Shown here: piece after piece, positions 55,125 through 64,000 of the stretch | Layout of the letters: every line of letters starts with the position of its first letter | Numbering within the stretch: position 1 is the stretch's first letter | Made by a program: the position numbers and the translations under genes | Notes under the pieces: model-generated | The model's input: only the letters and a program-made list of their open reading frames with translations | What the model was told of the DNA's origin: nothing | Databases searched by the model: none | NCBI GenBank assembly: GCA_027339965.1 | Contig: DAHWNL010000015.1 | Coordinates: 32,001-96,000, forward strand | Direction of reading: 5' to 3' | DNA: 64,000 nt | From: Granulicella sp. | Lineage (GTDB): Bacteria; Acidobacteriota; Terriglobia; Terriglobales; Acidobacteriaceae

Positions 55125-56222
55125 TTACCGGTTCCGCGGTCTGTCCGCATCCCGGGTCTTTACCAGATTGTCGAAGTCCAGGGATATCTGCACCAACTCC
55201 CCAGGCCTTTGCGCCTTCGGCTGCTCGCGCTGAAGCCAGGCGGGCAGGTCCACGCGCCACAACCGGGCCACGGCGCTGCCGACCCACATCGACCCCCGTA
55301 GTACATGCTTGGCCTTGAAGGGGCCTGCCAGGCGCATCTCGCTGATCCAGTGGGCAGCCGCGCTGGCCGAGCAGCCGCATTGGGTGCAGTCGGGATCGCC
55401 GCCAAAGACGCAGGGCTCAATGCGCGTGGAAAGATCGGCGGAGTAGTTTTTGGAGAGACGCGAAAAAGTGCATTGCCGCGGGGAGGCAGGCGGGTGCCGC
55501 AGGGCCTGCGCGAAGCCTTCCCCGGTGAGCAGTTTGGGATAAAGTGTGCGGAGGCGAGGCAGTTCACTGGTGACCCGCCGGCGCTGCTCGGCGGTCAACC
55601 GCTCCTGGCTATGCTCATCGCGCTGGGGCGAGTAAAGGCTGACCCAGATGTGGCTCACCTCCGGACGCTCGCTCCAGAAGCGTACGTACTCCTCCAGATA
55701 GCCGTCGCGCGTCAGCATCTGCGCGGTGATGGTCCAGTGAACGTTGATGCGGCGGCCGGCGATGTTCTCCAAAATGCGCTCGTAGGTTGCCGGATGCCGG
55801 CGCACGTCATGATGCTCCGGCAACCCATCGATCGAGACTGCCGCAGTGAAGTTGGGAAGGCTCATCCACTCCACGGGAATCGGGATGATGCCGCTGGTGA
55901 CCACCATGGCGTGCATGCCCCGAGCGGTAATCCAGGGCAAGATGCGGCTGAGCTCACGGTGGCGCAGCATGGGTTCGCCGCCCACCAGTGTCACGTGCAG
56001 CGGCCTGTGGCGACGGACCAGACCGAGCACGCCGCTGACCAGTGCGTCGCCGCGCTTGTCGCTCAGATCACGCAGCGTCAGCCCACCGCCCAGATGTTCC
56101 TGGCCGTACGCGTAACAGCCAGGGCAGCGCAGTGGGCACTCGCGGGTGATCTCGATGGACAGCATGGGGGTGCTGCCCGCAAGCACTCTCCCCCATGACT
56201 TCAAAACATCCGAGGTGCGCAA
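55125..56222 (-). CDS. Radical SAM protein with a C-terminal Cys cluster
   Basis: CPLRCPGC, GGEP, SIDG; C-terminal C..PC...DCTQCGC. Confidence 0.9.
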   Translation of the reverse strand: MRTSDVLKSWGRVLAGSTPMLSIEITRECPLRCPGCYAYGQEHLGGGLTLRDLSDKRGDALVSGVLGLVRRHRPLHVTLVGGEPMLRHRELSRILPWITARGMHAMVVTSGIIPIPVEWMSLPNFTAAVSIDGLPEHHDVRRHPATYERILENIAGRRINVHWTITAQMLTRDGYLEEYVRFWSERPEVSHIWVSLYSPQRDEHSQERLTAEQRRRVTSELPRLRTLYPKLLTGEGFAQALRHPPASPRQCTFSRLSKNYSADLSTRIEPCVFGGDPDCTQCGCSASAAAHWISEMRLAGPFKAKHVLRGSMWVGSAVARLWRVDLPAWLQREQPKAQRPGELVQISLDFDNLVKTRDADRPRNR

Positions 56223-56458: not shown

Positions 56459-57871
56459 TCAGCACTTGTGCTCATCCCCGTTTTCGTCCGGGCATCCCAT
56501 CGCACTCGGTGAAGAGTTGGGTGCGGGCGGCAGCGAGGAAAAGCTCATGTAGATGCCCTGCCTGGGCCGCAGGATCACCATCGCCCGCTCCGCAACGTCT
56601 TGTCCAGGCTCTAGATAAAGATCGTAATGGCGCAGGAGAACGCTAAGAATCATCAACATCTGGAAAATGGCATAGTTGGCCCCGATGCAGCTCCGCGGTC
56701 CCCCTCCAAAAGGCAGATGCGTAAACGGCGTCTGCTGCTTGATCTGCTCCCTGGCGAAGCGCTCCGGATTGAACTTTTCGGGACTCGGCCAGTACCGTTC
56801 TGCTCGATGGGCGCCATACACATAGACGATGACCATCGAACCGCGCGGAATCACGATATCTCCAACTCGATCCTCGGCCATCGCCATGCGGTCAATCATC
56901 CAGAAGGGAGGATAGAGACGCAGTCCCTCCTGGATGACCTGGATGGTGTACTCCAGCCGGGCGATCTCCGCGTAACCCAGAGGCGCCGCACCCAGCACGG
57001 AGTCCAGCTCCCGCCTCACGCGCCGCAGGCAATCCGGGTGCGTGCTCAATAGATACAAAAGCCAGGAGAGGCTATTGGACGATGTTTCATGGCCGGCCAC
57101 CAGAAGCTGCATGCTCTCGCTCAGCAACATCTGGTCACTCATGCCCTGCCCATCGCTGTAGCGGGCATCCATCAGCGTCTGCAGAAGGTCGTGCCCGGGC
57201 GGCTGGCCCCGCCGCTGGCGAATGTACTCCAATAGAACGCCGTCGGCGCGCTCTCGCATCTGCTCGTGTTTGCGCAACTGGCCGGAGACCGAAAACCAGG
57301 GGTTCAGATATGGCTCGATCGTCTGGCGAACGATGAACTCCTGAATGGTGGAAATGGAGTGGCTGACCAGGCCAATGTCCTCACTCTTCAGACGAGCGCC
57401 AAAGAGCGAGCGCGCCACCATCGCAAAGGTCATCTTCATCAGGTGAGGGTGGATGTCCACCGGACCAAGACGAACCTGGCGGTCAAACTCCGGCAGAGAC
57501 TCCTGCAACGACTCCTGCATGATGCTCCCCAGCGCCTCCAACTGCTTGCGATCGAATCCCTTCTGGATCAACCGCCGCTGCGTCCGCCAAGCCTCTCCGT
57601 GGGTGGTCAGCAGACCTTTGCCCAGAAAGTGGCCCATTCGCCTGACCTGGATGTGCGACTTCTGATAGTTCTCTGCGTTGGTCTTTAGAACATGCTGCAT
57701 CACCGCAGGTTCGCGCGTCAGCAGAGCTTTCTTCATGCCCCCTAGATAGAACCAGAAGGTGTCGCCATAATGCTCCGTGTACTTTGAGAGAACGTCGATG
57801 GGATTGCGCGCCATCGCGCGCGAGTCCAGAAGGGAGCGAAGCCGCGAGGCCCCCGGGGCGGAGGAGGGCAA
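56459..57871 (-). CDS. Cytochrome P450
   Basis: AGHET (I helix), EGLR (ExxR), PERF and FGGGPRSCIG heme motif; TTG start after AAGGAGG. Confidence 0.96.
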   Translation of the reverse strand: MPSSAPGASRLRSLLDSRAMARNPIDVLSKYTEHYGDTFWFYLGGMKKALLTREPAVMQHVLKTNAENYQKSHIQVRRMGHFLGKGLLTTHGEAWRTQRRLIQKGFDRKQLEALGSIMQESLQESLPEFDRQVRLGPVDIHPHLMKMTFAMVARSLFGARLKSEDIGLVSHSISTIQEFIVRQTIEPYLNPWFSVSGQLRKHEQMRERADGVLLEYIRQRRGQPPGHDLLQTLMDARYSDGQGMSDQMLLSESMQLLVAGHETSSNSLSWLLYLLSTHPDCLRRVRRELDSVLGAAPLGYAEIARLEYTIQVIQEGLRLYPPFWMIDRMAMAEDRVGDIVIPRGSMVIVYVYGAHRAERYWPSPEKFNPERFAREQIKQQTPFTHLPFGGGPRSCIGANYAIFQMLMILSVLLRHYDLYLEPGQDVAERAMVILRPRQGIYMSFSSLPPAPNSSPSAMGCPDENGDEHKC

Positions 57872-58007
57872 ACTACACCTCCTTCAAGGGCGATTGTTTG
57901 AGAGAACCGAACCATAACCGGCCAGTGTCACAACTGAATTGGGGCGCCATAGGGAAAGATCCAGACTCCGCGAATGTCGGTTCGCGCCTTTCTTTGTTCT
58001 TCTGTCT

Positions 58008-59144
58008 TCAGTCTGCCTGGCCGAGTTGTCTCAAGAGCATCAGATGGTGACGGATGGCCCCGGCCATGGTGCGATTCTGCCGGTAGGGTATGCCAAACTC
58101 GGCGGCTGTCTGCGCGACGATGCGGGTGAGAGGAGCATAGTGGGTGTGGCAGACGTAGGAGCACAGATGGTGCGCCACATGGTGGTTCAGCCCACCCGTA
58201 AGCCAGCCCACAACCGGGTTCGACGTTGCATAGTCGGCGGTGGTGGCAAAGATGTGATAGACGCCGTTCTCAAACTCATCGCGGCTGGCGGGAAAGTGTG
58301 TGCTTGCCACCGTATGGGTGGTCTGAAAAACTAGCGCCACGCTCAGCCCGACGATCAGATGCACCAGCAGGAATGCCCCGGCCACCAACCACACTGACCG
58401 GCCCAGCACCACCACAGGCAAGATCAGCATGTAAGTGACGTAGAGCGCCTTGCCCATCAATAGGGTGGCGTACTCCCGCGCCGGATGCCGGGCTCGCCGA
58501 AGGTACTCGTGGCTAGGAAAGAAAAAGCACTCGAAGTCGCGCACAAAAACGTAATCCAGAGAGAAGACCGCGTAAAGACCCAGCGCGTAGATATGTTGAA
58601 ATCGCTGCGCCCGGGTGCGCGGCTCATGCGGAGTAAAACGCAACAGTCCTCTTCCCGTCAGTGCATCGTCCTCCCCGTGGATGTTGATGCAGGAGTGATG
58701 CCCGCGGTGGTGCAGAATGCGCCACATGTAAGAACTGATGCCGCAGAGATCAAAGACATAATTCAGTGTCTTGTTGACCCAGGGGCGGGACGAGATGGCG
58801 TTATGGTTGCTGTCGTGAGCGATATTCAGCAGCAGGAAGGTCTGGGCAAGCCCGCCTAAAACGTAGAGAGCCACAAAGGCTCCCGGTCCCATCCTGACGG
58901 CATAAATCGCGATCCAACTGCCTGCGAGCAACGCCATTCCAGCGACAATCTTGACCCACATGGTCCGGTTAGCCTTGGGAGAGATGCCCTGACTGGTAAA
59001 GTACTGTTCCAGACGCTGCCGCAAGACTTTGGGGAAAAGGGCGCGGCCCGCTGCATCGACCGGAGAGTCGCCGGCTATCGCTCGCGCCGGGTCACGGTCA
59101 ACAGCTTCATCGCCGGTGCGCTCGCGAATCACCAGGTCCTCCAT
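58008..59144 (-). CDS. Membrane fatty-acid desaturase (delta6/linoleoyl-CoA-desaturase-like, no cyt b5 fusion)
   Basis: His boxes HDSNH, HHRGHH and HHVAHH; TM segments. Confidence 0.92.
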   Translation of the reverse strand: MEDLVIRERTGDEAVDRDPARAIAGDSPVDAAGRALFPKVLRQRLEQYFTSQGISPKANRTMWVKIVAGMALLAGSWIAIYAVRMGPGAFVALYVLGGLAQTFLLLNIAHDSNHNAISSRPWVNKTLNYVFDLCGISSYMWRILHHRGHHSCINIHGEDDALTGRGLLRFTPHEPRTRAQRFQHIYALGLYAVFSLDYVFVRDFECFFFPSHEYLRRARHPAREYATLLMGKALYVTYMLILPVVVLGRSVWLVAGAFLLVHLIVGLSVALVFQTTHTVASTHFPASRDEFENGVYHIFATTADYATSNPVVGWLTGGLNHHVAHHLCSYVCHTHYAPLTRIVAQTAAEFGIPYRQNRTMAGAIRHHLMLLRQLGQAD

Positions 59145-59416
59145 CTCCTCCGCGGTTATGGGTACTGTCTGCACGCAGGACGTCACAGTCCCCTCGCAAC
59201 CCCAACTTGCTCCAAATTCCATCCGGCCTCCCCGCAAGATCGGCGAACAGGGTGCGGACAGGGCAGATTATAACCCCGCAGTCCAAGTTTGCGACGGTAG
59301 CGCAGCGCCCGCGCTCCAAGCAAGACCGGAGTCGCAAGCCTCGGTAGATCCTCACCCGGCGGAGAGATGGCCGTGAGCAGACAAGGCAGGCATGACGGAG
59401 CGTTCATCTTGAGCTG

Positions 59417-59505
59417 GAAATCCTGAACTGGAAATCTTTGGACGGGCAATCCTGGCCCCGCAATCCTGGCCCCGCAATCCTGGACCCGCAGTCCTGGACC
59501 CGCAA
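59417..59505. repeat. 14-bp tandem repeat, ~6 copies
   Basis: gcaatcctggcccc x2, gcaatcctggaccc, gcagtcctggaccc plus two degenerate gaaatc units. Confidence 0.85.
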
Positions 59506-60126
59506 ACATGATGGGCAATTGCGCTCTGCTATCCTTGGCCAATGGCTCGTGCTGTCACCATGAAATGGCTCATTTCCTTGCCACTCCGCTGCTGTGCCGC
59601 GTCGGCTCGCCCAGCTCTCGCGCTCTCTTGTCGCGACGGCTGCGGGCTCTGGCCATGGAAATCACGCGCGTGCAATATACTGGAGACTTCAGCGCTCAAC
59701 CGTTGATCTTTAAGACCCAATTCCGAGCCCGAAAAGAAGCAGGACCTGCCCCAAAGGTGGAGCGGAGATCGAGAGTTCAGGTATCTTTTTCCATCAAAGA
59801 AGGGCATGCCCCCGCGCCGCGCTTGAACAGATACGGTCGGTAAGTTGCTTCGCGGGCACAGCCACAGACAAACAGAATGGGCTGGCAGAGAGAAGGTCAC
59901 TGAGTGGTTGCGCGAGAGTTCCCACTCCAGCCTTACCCTGACAAGAGGCACCGATCATTGAGAATCCGGAGTTTGGCCGCCCGGATTCATTCTGCAACAT
60001 GGGCTGTTGTACGGCTGGGCAGAGGCTAGGACTCTGGCTCTTTCCATGCCCAGGGAGATGTCTTGGACACCAGCGCCAGATGCTGATCGCTATCAACCCA
60101 ACACGGGAGGTCGTCACGGACCGATT

Positions 60127-63100
60127 ATGACGTCGATTTTGGACACGCTGGACCGACTGGGAGCCGAGCACCCGCACAAACGTCTCTACTCTTACCTTGA
60201 CCCGCACGGAAAGACGCTGGAGAGCTACACGTATGCGTCCTTCCTCCGCCGCACCAGGGCCATTGCGGAGCACCTGCTGAAGGACGGCCGCTTTGCCCCG
60301 GAGCAACGGCTGCTGCTGGCCTACCCGCCGGGGCTGGAGATGATCTGCGCCTTCTTCGGCTGCGTACGCGCCGGACTGGTTCCGGTGCCGGTGTACCCAC
60401 CCAGCTCGCGCGGCTTCCAGAGCGCCCTTTACAAGATGGTCCACATCGCCAAGGACTGCCAGGCCGCCGGAGTGCTGACCAACGAAGAGTACTACGCATC
60501 GCTCAAGACCAACCTGGCCAGAAGCGGCGTCTGCGCCTCGGGAGTGGACGTCGATTTCATCTCCGGCCTGGCCTGGATCCCAACCGAAGGGTTTGTCGAA
60601 CCGATCCGCGCAGAGTTCTCCGCCGCGGCTTCGCGGACCCTTTTTCTGCAATATACCTCGGGCTCGACCATGGACCCCAAAGGAGTGGTGGTCTCCCACG
60701 AGAACATCCTCCATACCAGTCCGCTGGTCATCGATCATCCGGATCCCGTGGTGGTCTCTTGGCTGCCGCAGTATCACGATATGGGCTTGATCGGCTGTTA
60801 CCTGTATCCGGCGCTGCAAGGCGGCACGGTCTACGGCTTCTCGGCTACCGACTTCATCCAGCGCCCCATCCTCTGGTTTGAGACCATTACTCGCTATCGC
60901 GCCACAGCATCGGCCGCACCCAACTTCGCCTACGACTACTGTCTGCGCGCCGGCCGTCTCTCCAAAGAAAGCCTTGCAGAGTGCGATCTGAGCTCACTGA
61001 AGATTCTCATGTGCGCTGCCGAGCCGGTGAAGCCGGAGACCTTTACTCGCTTCCTGGAGACCTTTGAGCCTTTCGGATTGAAGGCGACGAGCTTCTACGC
61101 CGCATACGGCCTGGCGGAGAACACGCTGGCTGTCTCCCTGGACGGCCGCTCCATCCTCTCGGTACAAAAGCACGCGCTGGCGCTGGGCAAGGCGCGGATG
61201 ACCACCGAGGTCTCCGAGATCGAAGCCTCGGTCCAGGTGGTCAGTTGTGGAACTCCGCTGCCCGGCATCCAGGTGAGGGTCGTCGACCCGGAGCGCCACG
61301 TTGCGCTGGAGCCAGGACAGATTGGCGAGATCTGGATTGCGGGCCAGGGCAAGTGCCAGGGCTACTGGAACAACCCCGAGCTCACGTTGAAGCAGTTTCA
61401 CGCGCGACTGGTGGACGACAGCCCCTTTGACGATGGGTATCTGCGCACCGGCGATATGGGCTTCTTCCATCGTGGCGAACTCTTCGTCTGCGGCCGGATC
61501 AAGGACATGATCATTCTGCGCGGCCAGAACTACTACCCGCAGGATATTGAACGCATCGTGGAGCGAACCTCAAGCCTTCTGCGCGCCCATTGCGTCGCTG
61601 CTTTCCAGATCCACGAAGCCAGCGAGCCGGCGCTGGCCATTGTGGCCGAGGTGAAGAACCCCAGTGTGCTTCCCGATGCGCGCAAGATCGCCACCGAGGT
61701 CCGCAACTACCTGAACGTGGAGGTGGCGCTGATCTGCTTCATTGCGCCCCGCGCCATTCCCCGAACCAGCTCGGGCAAGATCATGCGCCACAAGACCAAG
61801 CAGATGTGGCTTGACGGCCAGTTCAAGGTTCTCTCCGAGTTCTCCCGCGAGAAAGACTCCGGCGCCGCTGCGGCGGCCACTACGGCGCGCTCCTCCTTTG
61901 ACGCCATGAAAGCGCGTTACAACCTGACCGGCATGGAGCCCTACAACCTGGTGGAAGCCGGACTGGATTCGCTCGACCTGGTGGTCTTCATGCATGAGCT
62001 GAAGGAATTGCTCAAGGACAAAGGTGCTGAGATCCTCGCCCGCCAGATCGATGTTGGCGTGATTCAGCGCGTCAGCGTGGCCGAGATCTTCCTGCTGGCC
62101 GAGCAGTTGGAGAGCGCTCCCGAGGAGGCTTTGCTGCATCTGCGCCAATCCCTAGCCACCTTCCGCGAAGAGCAGCAGGCAGCCGAACGAACCCTCATGC
62201 TCCAGGACAGCAAGCTCGCCTTCTCGCCCCGCACTCCCGCGCCGCTGCCCGAAGTTGTCATCCCGGAACATGTGCTGCTCACCGGCGGCACCGGATTCAT
62301 CGGCCCGTTTTTGATGAGGAGCTTGCTGGAGCAAACCCATGCGCGGATCTGCGTGCTGGTGCGCGCCGCTGACGAAGAGCAGGGCCGGCAACGGCTGCGC
62401 GCGGCCATGGAGTCGATGGGCCCATGTTCCTCGGCGCTGATGCGTAGCTTCGAAAGGCGCGTGACGCCTCTCTGCGGCGACCTGGGTCATCGCAACCTGG
62501 GCCTGAGCGACGAGACGTGGAACCGGTTGGCCAAGGAGGCCGACACCATCTTCCATAACGGCGCCACCGTGAACTACCTGTTCAACTACGACCGTATGCG
62601 CGAAGCCAACGTGATGGGCACGAACGAGGTTCTGCGTCTGGCCTTCGCTGGGCGCCCCAAGGAGTTCAATTACGTCTCCACCACCTTCGTCTTCGGCTGG
62701 GCGGTAAAGAAGGTTCTGCGGGAGACCGATCACAACCAGGATATGGAGTTGCTCGACTTCGGCTACAGCCAAACCAAGTGGGTCGCCGAACAGGTAGTGG
62801 CCGACGCCCGCAGCAAGGGCCTTTCCACCCGCATCTTCCGCCCCGCGCTGGTCAGCCCTTCGGTCTCCGGCGGCGGCAACAACTTCGATATTGCGGTGCG
62901 CCTGGTCGCCTTCATGATCAATCACGGAATCGGCGTCGATGCTCTCAACCAGGTGAGCTTTGTTCCGGCGGACATTGTGGCCGACAATATCGTGGCCATC
63001 GCCACCACACCCGGCACGGCGAACCAGACCTACCACGTCACCCGCGACGATTACTCCAACATGCTCGACATCACCGGCCTGATCACCCGATCCACCGGAC

Positions 63101-63399
63101 GGCAGTTCGAGATCTTCAGCCTGCGCGATTTTGTGCCGGAGCTGATCCGGCGCTGCCGCAAGGAGGATCTGCTCTTCCCGTTGCTAGACTTCCTGGTGGG
63201 CTCGGTGGAGAACATCTCCGCGATGGAGTTCAAGCGTTACGACAGCTCGGCTTATCAGGCTGCCCGCGACGCCTCTGTCTGCGGAAGGCCGGATCCATCC
63301 CTGGAAGAGACGGTGAATGGCATTCTGAAGTTCATGCACCGCAAGGGCATCATCTCGGTGGCTCCGCACGAGGTGAACGAGCCCATCGAAGTGGCGTAG
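60127..63399 (+). CDS. Fatty acyl-AMP ligase-ACP-thioester reductase (A-T-R) multidomain enzyme
   Basis: LQYTSGST, WLPQYHDMGLIG, YGLAE + FAAL-type insertion, LRTGD, PRTSSGK; GLDSL (Ppant Ser); TGGTGFIG and YSQTK reductase motifs. Confidence 0.93.
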   Translation: MTSILDTLDRLGAEHPHKRLYSYLDPHGKTLESYTYASFLRRTRAIAEHLLKDGRFAPEQRLLLAYPPGLEMICAFFGCVRAGLVPVPVYPPSSRGFQSALYKMVHIAKDCQAAGVLTNEEYYASLKTNLARSGVCASGVDVDFISGLAWIPTEGFVEPIRAEFSAAASRTLFLQYTSGSTMDPKGVVVSHENILHTSPLVIDHPDPVVVSWLPQYHDMGLIGCYLYPALQGGTVYGFSATDFIQRPILWFETITRYRATASAAPNFAYDYCLRAGRLSKESLAECDLSSLKILMCAAEPVKPETFTRFLETFEPFGLKATSFYAAYGLAENTLAVSLDGRSILSVQKHALALGKARMTTEVSEIEASVQVVSCGTPLPGIQVRVVDPERHVALEPGQIGEIWIAGQGKCQGYWNNPELTLKQFHARLVDDSPFDDGYLRTGDMGFFHRGELFVCGRIKDMIILRGQNYYPQDIERIVERTSSLLRAHCVAAFQIHEASEPALAIVAEVKNPSVLPDARKIATEVRNYLNVEVALICFIAPRAIPRTSSGKIMRHKTKQMWLDGQFKVLSEFSREKDSGAAAAATTARSSFDAMKARYNLTGMEPYNLVEAGLDSLDLVVFMHELKELLKDKGAEILARQIDVGVIQRVSVAEIFLLAEQLESAPEEALLHLRQSLATFREEQQAAERTLMLQDSKLAFSPRTPAPLPEVVIPEHVLLTGGTGFIGPFLMRSLLEQTHARICVLVRAADEEQGRQRLRAAMESMGPCSSALMRSFERRVTPLCGDLGHRNLGLSDETWNRLAKEADTIFHNGATVNYLFNYDRMREANVMGTNEVLRLAFAGRPKEFNYVSTTFVFGWAVKKVLRETDHNQDMELLDFGYSQTKWVAEQVVADARSKGLSTRIFRPALVSPSVSGGGNNFDIAVRLVAFMINHGIGVDALNQVSFVPADIVADNIVAIATTPGTANQTYHVTRDDYSNMLDITGLITRSTGRQFEIFSLRDFVPELIRRCRKEDLLFPLLDFLVGSVENISAMEFKRYDSSAYQAARDASVCGRPDPSLEETVNGILKFMHRKGIISVAPHEVNEPIEVA

Positions 63400-63706: not shown

Positions 63707-64000
63707 TTACTGCTTGCGGAAGACCAACGTCTCTGCGAGGTGCTGTCCGGTCGGCAAGGTTCCTTCGTCGGTCATCGTCATCCGGCGTCCATCAGCGGAG
63801 ACAATATAGCGGGCTTTCTCCGTCGCCTGGCCGTCGCGGCGATAGATCTCGTCCACGGTGCGAGCATTCACCAGCGAAAGCTGCACCGTGTCATTGCGCG
63901 AGTTCTGCAGATCATACTGCCGGCCATCCAGGCGCGCGTCATAGCGAAAGCCCGAGGAGAATTGAACCCCGCCACGGCCATCCGATTCAATCTTCAACAC
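63707..64000 (-). CDS. C-terminal part of a hypothetical beta-rich protein (runs off window)
   Basis: Open frame to the window edge; VSADGRRMT...VFRKQ lipocalin-like ending. Confidence 0.6.
   Translation of the reverse strand: MLKIESDGRGGVQFSSGFRYDARLDGRQYDLQNSRNDTVQLSLVNARTVDEIYRRDGQATEKARYIVSADGRRMTMTDEGTLPTGQHLAETLVFRKQ

Follow-up and report, generated by a model that had tools for sequence, protein, structure and literature searches.

Gene content and organisation of the cassette

The window analysed here is a stretch of 64,000 nucleotides from a Granulicella sp. genome of the Acidobacteriaceae (contig DAHWNL010000015.1, positions 32,001 to 96,000; G000:C47:32001-96000 in our coordinates). 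Near its end lies a unit of five genes, which encode a cytochrome P450, a membrane desaturase-family protein, a fusion of adenylation (A), carrier or thiolation (T) and reductase (R) domains (hereafter ATR), a secreted barrel protein and an MmpL transporter, the last two at or past the end of the window. It is a discrete, apparently undescribed cassette for lipid synthesis and export, built of known enzyme types. Its features are:

56459..57871, minus strand: cytochrome P450 of 470 amino acids (aa), ATR-linked family (PF00067, E 1.4e-82)
58008..59237, minus strand: membrane di-iron desaturase-family protein with three His boxes (PF00487)
59238..60126, no strand: divergent intergenic region with a GGAGG ribosome site ahead of ATR
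60127..63399, plus strand: ATR, 1090 aa, with a fatty acyl-AMP ligase (FAAL) domain (1-575), a carrier domain (about 590-665) and a thioester reductase domain (715-1035)
63707..64000, minus strand: 3' end of the secreted barrel protein (full length about 260-275 aa), whose gene runs to about G000:C47:96534
G000:C47:96633-98978 (L001:10634-12979), plus strand: MmpL/RND transporter, wholly outside the window (PF03176, E 5e-63)

A sequence-only reading of this DNA had described an intact fusion protein of about 1090 aa with a FAAL domain, a carrier with a GLDS serine and a thioester reductase, and domain search and motifs confirmed it. The positions and strands of the genes likewise agree with its description of a desaturase with three His boxes and a P450 lying divergent from ATR on the opposite strand. 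These three genes are real and in place; the set had been drawn too small, as the barrel and MmpL genes at or beyond the window end complete it.

The ATG of ATR at 60127 is preceded by GGAGG, an arrangement kept in relatives, and the desaturase probably starts 60-100 bp further downstream on its own strand than 59237. In an alignment of 28 intergenic sequences, only the ribosome site and a weak promoter-like stretch stood out as conserved, and a promoter and terminator scan of the cassette region gave no sites in excess of shuffles. None of the five cassette proteins contains a ketosynthase (KS), condensation (C) or thioesterase (TE) domain; the whole window was not scanned for KS, C or TE.

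Conservation and distribution of the cassette

A scan of GTDB contigs detected at least 674 ATR relatives, of which the best 80 were studied; these come mostly from Acidobacteriaceae and other Terriglobia. Among them the desaturase gene was found in 76 loci, the P450 gene in 73, and the secreted protein and MmpL genes in 75 each, with constant order and orientation, and the misses are mostly short contigs. All five genes are present in 65 of the 67 close loci that have at least 3.2 kb on each side. The flanks vary: on the P450 side 66 loci fall into 57 groups, and on the MmpL side 69 loci fall into 50. ATR and P450 occur in the identical 27 of 401 genomes of the family, neither of them alone (13 of 116 genera), and close ATR and close desaturase in the identical 8 of 401 genomes of the phylum. 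Because the genomes are kin, these counts describe a stable unit and not independent trials. Across soil Acidobacteria the five genes travel together, and the co-occurrence of the three genes in other genomes, on which the sequence-only reading depended, is clearly borne out by these 65 loci and 27 genomes. Cultured strains that carry it are Granulicella sp. S190 and S156 and Tunturiibacter gelidiferens X5P2.

No regulator conserved with the cassette was found in 81 loci, nor was any further conserved gene of at least 90 aa, a length below which a rubredoxin would escape. Three groups of neighbouring genes were rejected as members, each of them adjoining the cassette in only one of the 80 loci (L003, a near-identical relative): the radical SAM gene at 55125-56222 (minus strand) upstream of ftsQ-ftsA-ftsZ, the fts genes themselves, and the downstream polysaccharide deacetylase and glycosyltransferase genes.

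Some loci showed other features. In 17 of 81 loci (e.g. L043:18284-19357) the cassette is followed by a gene for a HAD-family hydrolase, which may be an accessory or reflect shared ancestry, and L008, L010, L061 and L077 share genes near the cassette that by eye resemble a type III polyketide synthase (PKS) and a methyltransferase. Cassette-type ATRs at 75-78% were found in assemblies titled Janthinobacterium lividum and Candidatus Dormiibacterota (L070, L056), by misbinning or transfer. The genome of the window contains a second locus of lipid-like type at L098:4025-11676 (G000:C81), where open reading frame translations include short-chain dehydrogenase/reductase (SDR)-like and acyl-CoA-ligase-like proteins, a glycosyltransferase, a hydrolase and parts of an ABC transporter.

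Domains of the ATR protein

Domain searches located AMP-binding at residues 13-414 and NAD_binding_4 at residues 718-955 of ATR. All 11 solved-structure matches of the A domain with E <1e-60 are FAALs, the Ols FAAL first (36% identity). By sequence and fold, its best solved relatives are the Ols FAAL (7R7E/F/G) and the Legionella FAAL (3KXW), and the top five matches in a fold comparison of the ATR model are FAALs. Judged by these alignments, the A domain groups with solved FAALs and not with fatty acyl-CoA ligases or A domains of nonribosomal peptide synthetases. Residues 336-372 align to the Ols, Legionella and FadD23 FAALs with small gaps only, the stretch FIQRPILW corresponds to FLQRPFRW of FAALs, and P88, P91, P92 and P214 are invariant in 34/34 sequences; we take these to be the named insertion, helix and pocket of FAALs. 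The accessible part of one source gives a FAAL-specific insertion, a FAAL-specific helix and a proline-lined pocket as FAAL hallmarks (PMC8460268). ATR scored below the curated cut-offs of the named NCBIfam FAAL families (PRK09192, 327 vs 600; FadD32, 286 vs 975). Gly233 of ATR aligns to Ala229 of the Ols FAAL, the position of the Ile mutation in the palmitoyl-bound Ols structure, and because of this residue a long chain would be compatible with the domain.

The carrier motif GLDS comprises residues 612-615 (Ser615 codon, 61969-61971), and Ser615 is invariant in 41/41 distant ATR members. An AlphaFold model has helices at 590-597, 615-631 and 643-663, with a predicted local distance difference test score of about 62-77. 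As modelled, the carrier is a helical bundle of atypical sequence in which helix II begins with the GxDS serine. The R domain reached 244.8 bits against the thioester reductase family TIGR01746 (cut-off 213.35), and the Rossmann (TGxxGxxG), S/T and YxxxK motifs are present in all 38 rows of the ATR tree described below. Its nearest match is the R domain of MxaA (E 1.4e-53), which reportedly yields alcohols. In three records ATR appears split or frameshifted, by sequencing error or decay (G326:C1:3368953-3371314; G712:C6:178150-180868; W01:509296-512543).

P450 and desaturase

The P450 has the AGHETS, ExxR and haem Cys motifs, and LLVAGHETS is present in 73 of 74 cassette copies. It is of the eukaryote-like type, and LUT5, CYP3A4 and CYP4B1 are among its best solved matches. 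Identity to the P450s directly behind the ATRs of the sister clade (see below) is 38-45%, whereas it is at most 33% to plasmid P450s. In contrast to the AGHETS of the cassette, the sister-clade P450s of L168, L184, L192 and L193 display AGNETS, AGNESS or AGSETS in the I helix.

The desaturase falls among bacterial acyl-CoA desaturases with which it shares 27-40% identity; its nearest annotated relatives are ordinary acyl-CoA desaturases (38%), and a search by sequence found no solved relative. A Gln in the third His box marks front-end desaturases. The third box of the cassette protein reads HxxHH and not QxxHH, with His in 74/74 cassette copies, whereas Gln occupies this position in 21 of 22 non-cassette relatives, so that the cassette protein lacks the front-end signature although its relatives keep the Gln. 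There is also an Asn-to-His change in box 2, and the cassette clade stands on a long branch of the desaturase tree. The switch from Gln to His may have altered the regiochemistry or brought about another reaction. A stand-alone sister desaturase (L107; G266:C118:257775-258830) also has His for Gln in box 3; its locus of 4 kb contains no cassette genes.

Barrel protein and MmpL transporter

The barrel protein has a signal-peptide-like N-terminus (alignment read by eye) and an internal repeat (E 3e-5) of two units resembling fatty-acid-binding proteins (FABPs) or calycins. No Pfam family matched it. Its model is nearly all beta, a Foldseek search with this model gave weak matches only, and one atlas cluster of relatives is named lipocalin-like. 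The transporter has two MMPL repeats, MmpL3 as best solved relative, and Asp-Tyr motifs that are kept in 68/68 and 66/68 copies; it is present in 72 of the 73 loci that extend at least 3.2 kb downstream. Because the cassette contains both proteins, export of a hydrophobic product by MmpL and the barrel protein is likely, as far as sequences and model indicate.

ATR relatives outside the cassette

A profile search revealed about 45 full-length ATR representatives at 50% clustering among the best 150. A metagenome search with distant ATRs as query returned 80 loci, 52 of them of cassette type at 74-81%. We built an ATR tree of 38 rows, consisting of ten cassette ATRs, 20 of the 28 non-cassette metagenome loci (near-full length), seven distant Acidobacteriota sequences and one from Ralstonia. 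Seven loci form the sister clade (support 0.999; G+C 0.38-0.68) of the cassette clade plus L201. In all seven, a gene of the cassette P450 family lies directly downstream of ATR, and three of them carry a Sulfotransfer_3 gene. These loci show that the pairing of ATR with the P450 is older than that with the desaturase.

One locus of the sister clade (L184:563-8150) carries a set of phosphopantetheinyl transferase (PPTase), ATR, P450, sulfotransferase and desaturase genes. The PPTase gene is of Sfp type and lies directly upstream of ATR, an adjacency which supports a working carrier domain. The desaturase has a plain Q-box, QIEHH, and the relatives of the P450 are named from Fluviicola, Crocinitomicaceae and Bacteroidota. 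L149, L193 and L128, the last a row outside the sister clade with another desaturase and a sulfotransferase, were grouped with this locus as candidates for the synthesis of alkyl or diol sulfates.

Among the other 21 rows, ten have a PAP2_3 gene and ten an Lgt-like gene adjacent to ATR, and several of the remaining rows are short contigs. On 107 records of Ralstonia megaplasmids there are full-length homologues at 36-38%, and PAP2_3 adjoins ATR in the two examined. ATR with PAP2_3, often with an Lgt-like gene too, was observed in L083, L086, L087, L089, L092, L093, L131, L132, L134, L138 and L201. The gene content of these loci suggests a separate lipid module that extends across distant bacteria including Ralstonia megaplasmids and of which we met no description. 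Sulfotransferases and PAP2-type enzymes need a hydroxyl acceptor, and since both are partners of ATR, an alcohol is favoured as its product.

Comparison with known systems

Carboxylic acid reductases (CARs) have the A-T-R order and reductive release in common with ATR; however, ATR reached 142.9 bits against the CAR family NF041592 (cut-off 1300), its A domain is a FAAL, and its R domain is far closer to that of MxaA (E 1e-53) than to that of CARs (2e-27). The Ols system provides the FAAL that is the best solved match, and a sulfotransferase is found in Ols as in sister-clade ATR loci. In contrast to Ols, ATR has no KS, acyltransferase, ketoreductase, sulfotransferase or TE domain, and its release would be reductive. 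The heterocyst glycolipid aglycone route (HglB ACP-reductase) reductively releases a long-chain envelope polyol, and in mycobacteria a FAAL-initiated lipid is moved by MmpL with a barrel-type lipoprotein carrier. Unlike these two routes, the cassette has no PKS and no glycosyltransferase, and oxidation would fall to the P450 and the desaturase. By analogy, we liken the cassette to reductive release of the CAR or HglB type joined to FAAL tailoring logic.

The sequence-only reading had leaned towards polyynes. Polyyne clusters (jamABC; mas, col, pgn, cay) share with the cassette a FAAL-loaded acyl carrier protein (ACP), a membrane desaturase and a hydroxylating oxygenase. Their core is given as FAAL-2xFAD-ACP-FAD-H/TE-Rd (FAD, fatty acid desaturase; Rd, rubredoxin) in the accessible part of PMC9098870. 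The cassette differs from it by a single desaturase, a fused carrier, a reductase in place of the thioesterase, the lack of a rubredoxin among the conserved genes of 90 aa or more, and the additional MmpL and barrel genes; because the three desaturases, thioesterase and rubredoxin are absent, we do not assign it to the polyyne class. A second leaning, towards the ether-lipid enzyme ElbD of Myxococcus, did not hold either. ElbD (BGC0000871) has the order reductase, synthetase, thiolation, acyltransferase according to the accessible part of PMC9426513. Like ATR it combines ligase, carrier and reductase on a fatty acid, but ATR has the A-T-R order, no acyltransferase and other partner genes, which are patchily distributed and include an exporter.

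FAALs fused to alpha-aminoadipate-reductase-type domains appear as a rare architecture, with neither function, product nor gene context given, in the accessible part of Patil et al. 2021 (PMC8460268). The accessible parts of PMC10087280, 10.64898/2026.06.23.733905, PMC10219277 and PMC10088813 do not describe the cluster. Our literature searches found no description of cluster or product; subscription papers were only partly covered and may bear on novelty.

Proposed pathway and its alternatives

On balance, and with little more than even confidence, we propose that the cassette converts a fatty acid into a long-chain fatty alcohol, hydroxylated and unsaturated, and exports it, all chemical steps being deduced from the enzyme types. 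The FAAL domain, with the chemistry of known FAALs, would adenylate a free fatty acid and load it onto Ser615 of its own carrier, primed possibly by an AcpS-type transferase. The R domain, of the SDR type, would then reduce the thioester with NAD(P)H via the aldehyde to the primary alcohol, a presumed four-electron outcome. Before or after release, the P450 would add a second oxygen, probably as a hydroxyl, and the desaturase-family protein a double bond or a related oxidation. MmpL would move the lipid over the inner membrane and the tandem barrel would carry it in the periplasm. The product is likely an accessory envelope, surface or signalling lipid. In its broad outline the sequence-only proposal of a real, apparently uncharacterised lipid pathway with reductive release thus stands, as thioester reductase motifs and gene co-occurrence agree with it.

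Several observations weigh against this proposal. The alcohol argument is borrowed from relatives, because sulfotransferase and PAP2 partners lie outside the cassette and were not found in the genome, and in L201 (60%), the nearest outgroup, ATR is accompanied by Lgt and PAP2 genes but by no P450. The second match of the R domain is 8V1X (E 1.5e-44), reportedly an aldehyde-releasing PKS reductase, and since it ranks directly behind MxaA R, the sequence does not decide between alcohol and aldehyde. On the carrier, Pfam PP-binding scored 15.3 bits (E 0.025), under its cut-off of 20.8, though with the match centred on the serine. No Sfp-type PPTase was found in the 98.9% complete genome, which has only an AcpS-type enzyme; since the motif GLDSLD resembles ACPs of fatty acid synthases, priming by AcpS is possible. 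There is no electron-transfer gene within the cassette; ferredoxin-type domains are encoded elsewhere in the genome. The first repeat of the barrel protein matched FABP-family chains with Z 8.2-8.9 (top eight rows; root-mean-square deviation 2.3-4.1 over 89-97 residues), and the best value of 8.9 is barely above the usual background of 7-8. L008 has no desaturase, and L069 (within 3.3 kb) and the metagenome loci L148 and L169 have no barrel and MmpL genes within 3.3-7.5 kb; L008 and L069 are the two exceptions among the 67 loci. The close loci, too, are kin and the best 80 of at least 674.

Because the third His box is altered, an alkyne is conceivable though improbable: the desaturase would act as acetylenase, conjugase or epoxygenase and the product would be an alkynol or an oxylipin-like alcohol. 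The strict Gln-to-His change in box 3 (74/74 copies against Gln in 21/22 relatives), the Asn-to-His change in box 2 and the long branch speak for such a shift. The accessible part of PMC9098870 gives FAAL, desaturase and ACP as the minimal module for alkynes, and patchy distribution with a dedicated exporter would suit a bioactive compound. The cassette, however, has a single desaturase, no thioesterase and no rubredoxin, the nearest annotated desaturases are of the ordinary acyl-CoA type, and L184 has a plain QIEHH enzyme.

In insects, cuticular hydrocarbons are made by a desaturase, a reductase and CYP4G. ATR might correspondingly release an aldehyde which the P450 decarbonylates to an n-1 alkene for export by MmpL. 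The tight and old pairing of ATR and P450, the eukaryote-like P450 matches and the suitability of a lipid carrier and MmpL for a very hydrophobic product fit this route. We nevertheless regard it as unlikely, since the sulfotransferase beside three of the seven sister-clade ATR-P450 pairs needs a hydroxyl and the I helix is a canonical AGHETS.

We hold it to be just as doubtful that membrane lipids with ether bonds or phospho-headgroups draw their alkyl alcohol from ATR, with the oxidases tailoring the chain. Distant ATRs do lie beside PAP2_3 and Lgt-like genes (10/21 each), and Acidobacteria make alkyl ethers by routes that are incompletely known in the accessible parts of PMC10087280 and 10.64898/2026.06.23.733905. 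But the cassette lacks genes for an acyltransferase, PAP2 or Lgt, and it occurs in only 27 of 401 family genomes; a search of the genome found no PAP2_3, and the domains of ElbD follow a different order.

P450s and MmpL proteins are common in lipid handling. Detoxification or scavenging of exogenous long-chain acids of plants, mosses and lichens by reduction, oxidation and efflux would agree with this, with the acceptance of free acids by FAALs and with the patchy distribution, but it is the least probable alternative, as carrier-bound reduction spends ATP and NAD(P)H in a biosynthetic logic, FAALs divert acids from CoA activation (accessible part of PMC8460268) and the cassette has no conserved regulator.

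Implications

Returning to the proposed fatty alcohol pathway, its product should be findable directly, because cultured strains carry this compact and strictly conserved cassette. A single polypeptide that turns an acid into an alcohol while bypassing CoA would be a useful biocatalyst, and the natural Gln-to-His desaturase offers a test of what the third-box residue controls.

A wider view, which we put forward tentatively and hold to be plausible rather than probable, is that ATR lies at the centre of a so far unrecognised multi-phylum platform for long-chain alkyl alcohols that are finished differently in each group. The Acidobacteriaceae branch may export an alkynol, epoxide or polyol made with the His-switched desaturase, which would be new chemistry; Bacteroidota-type and other loci may make diol sulfates by P450 and sulfotransferase; and still others may use PAP2_3 to add a phospho-headgroup. 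Acidobacteria abound in soil and peat, yet to our knowledge few of their specialised lipids have been characterised. If the platform is real, these abundant soil bacteria would gain a new class of secreted lipid, and there would be genes to account for long-chain diols and alkyl sulfates of unexplained origin.

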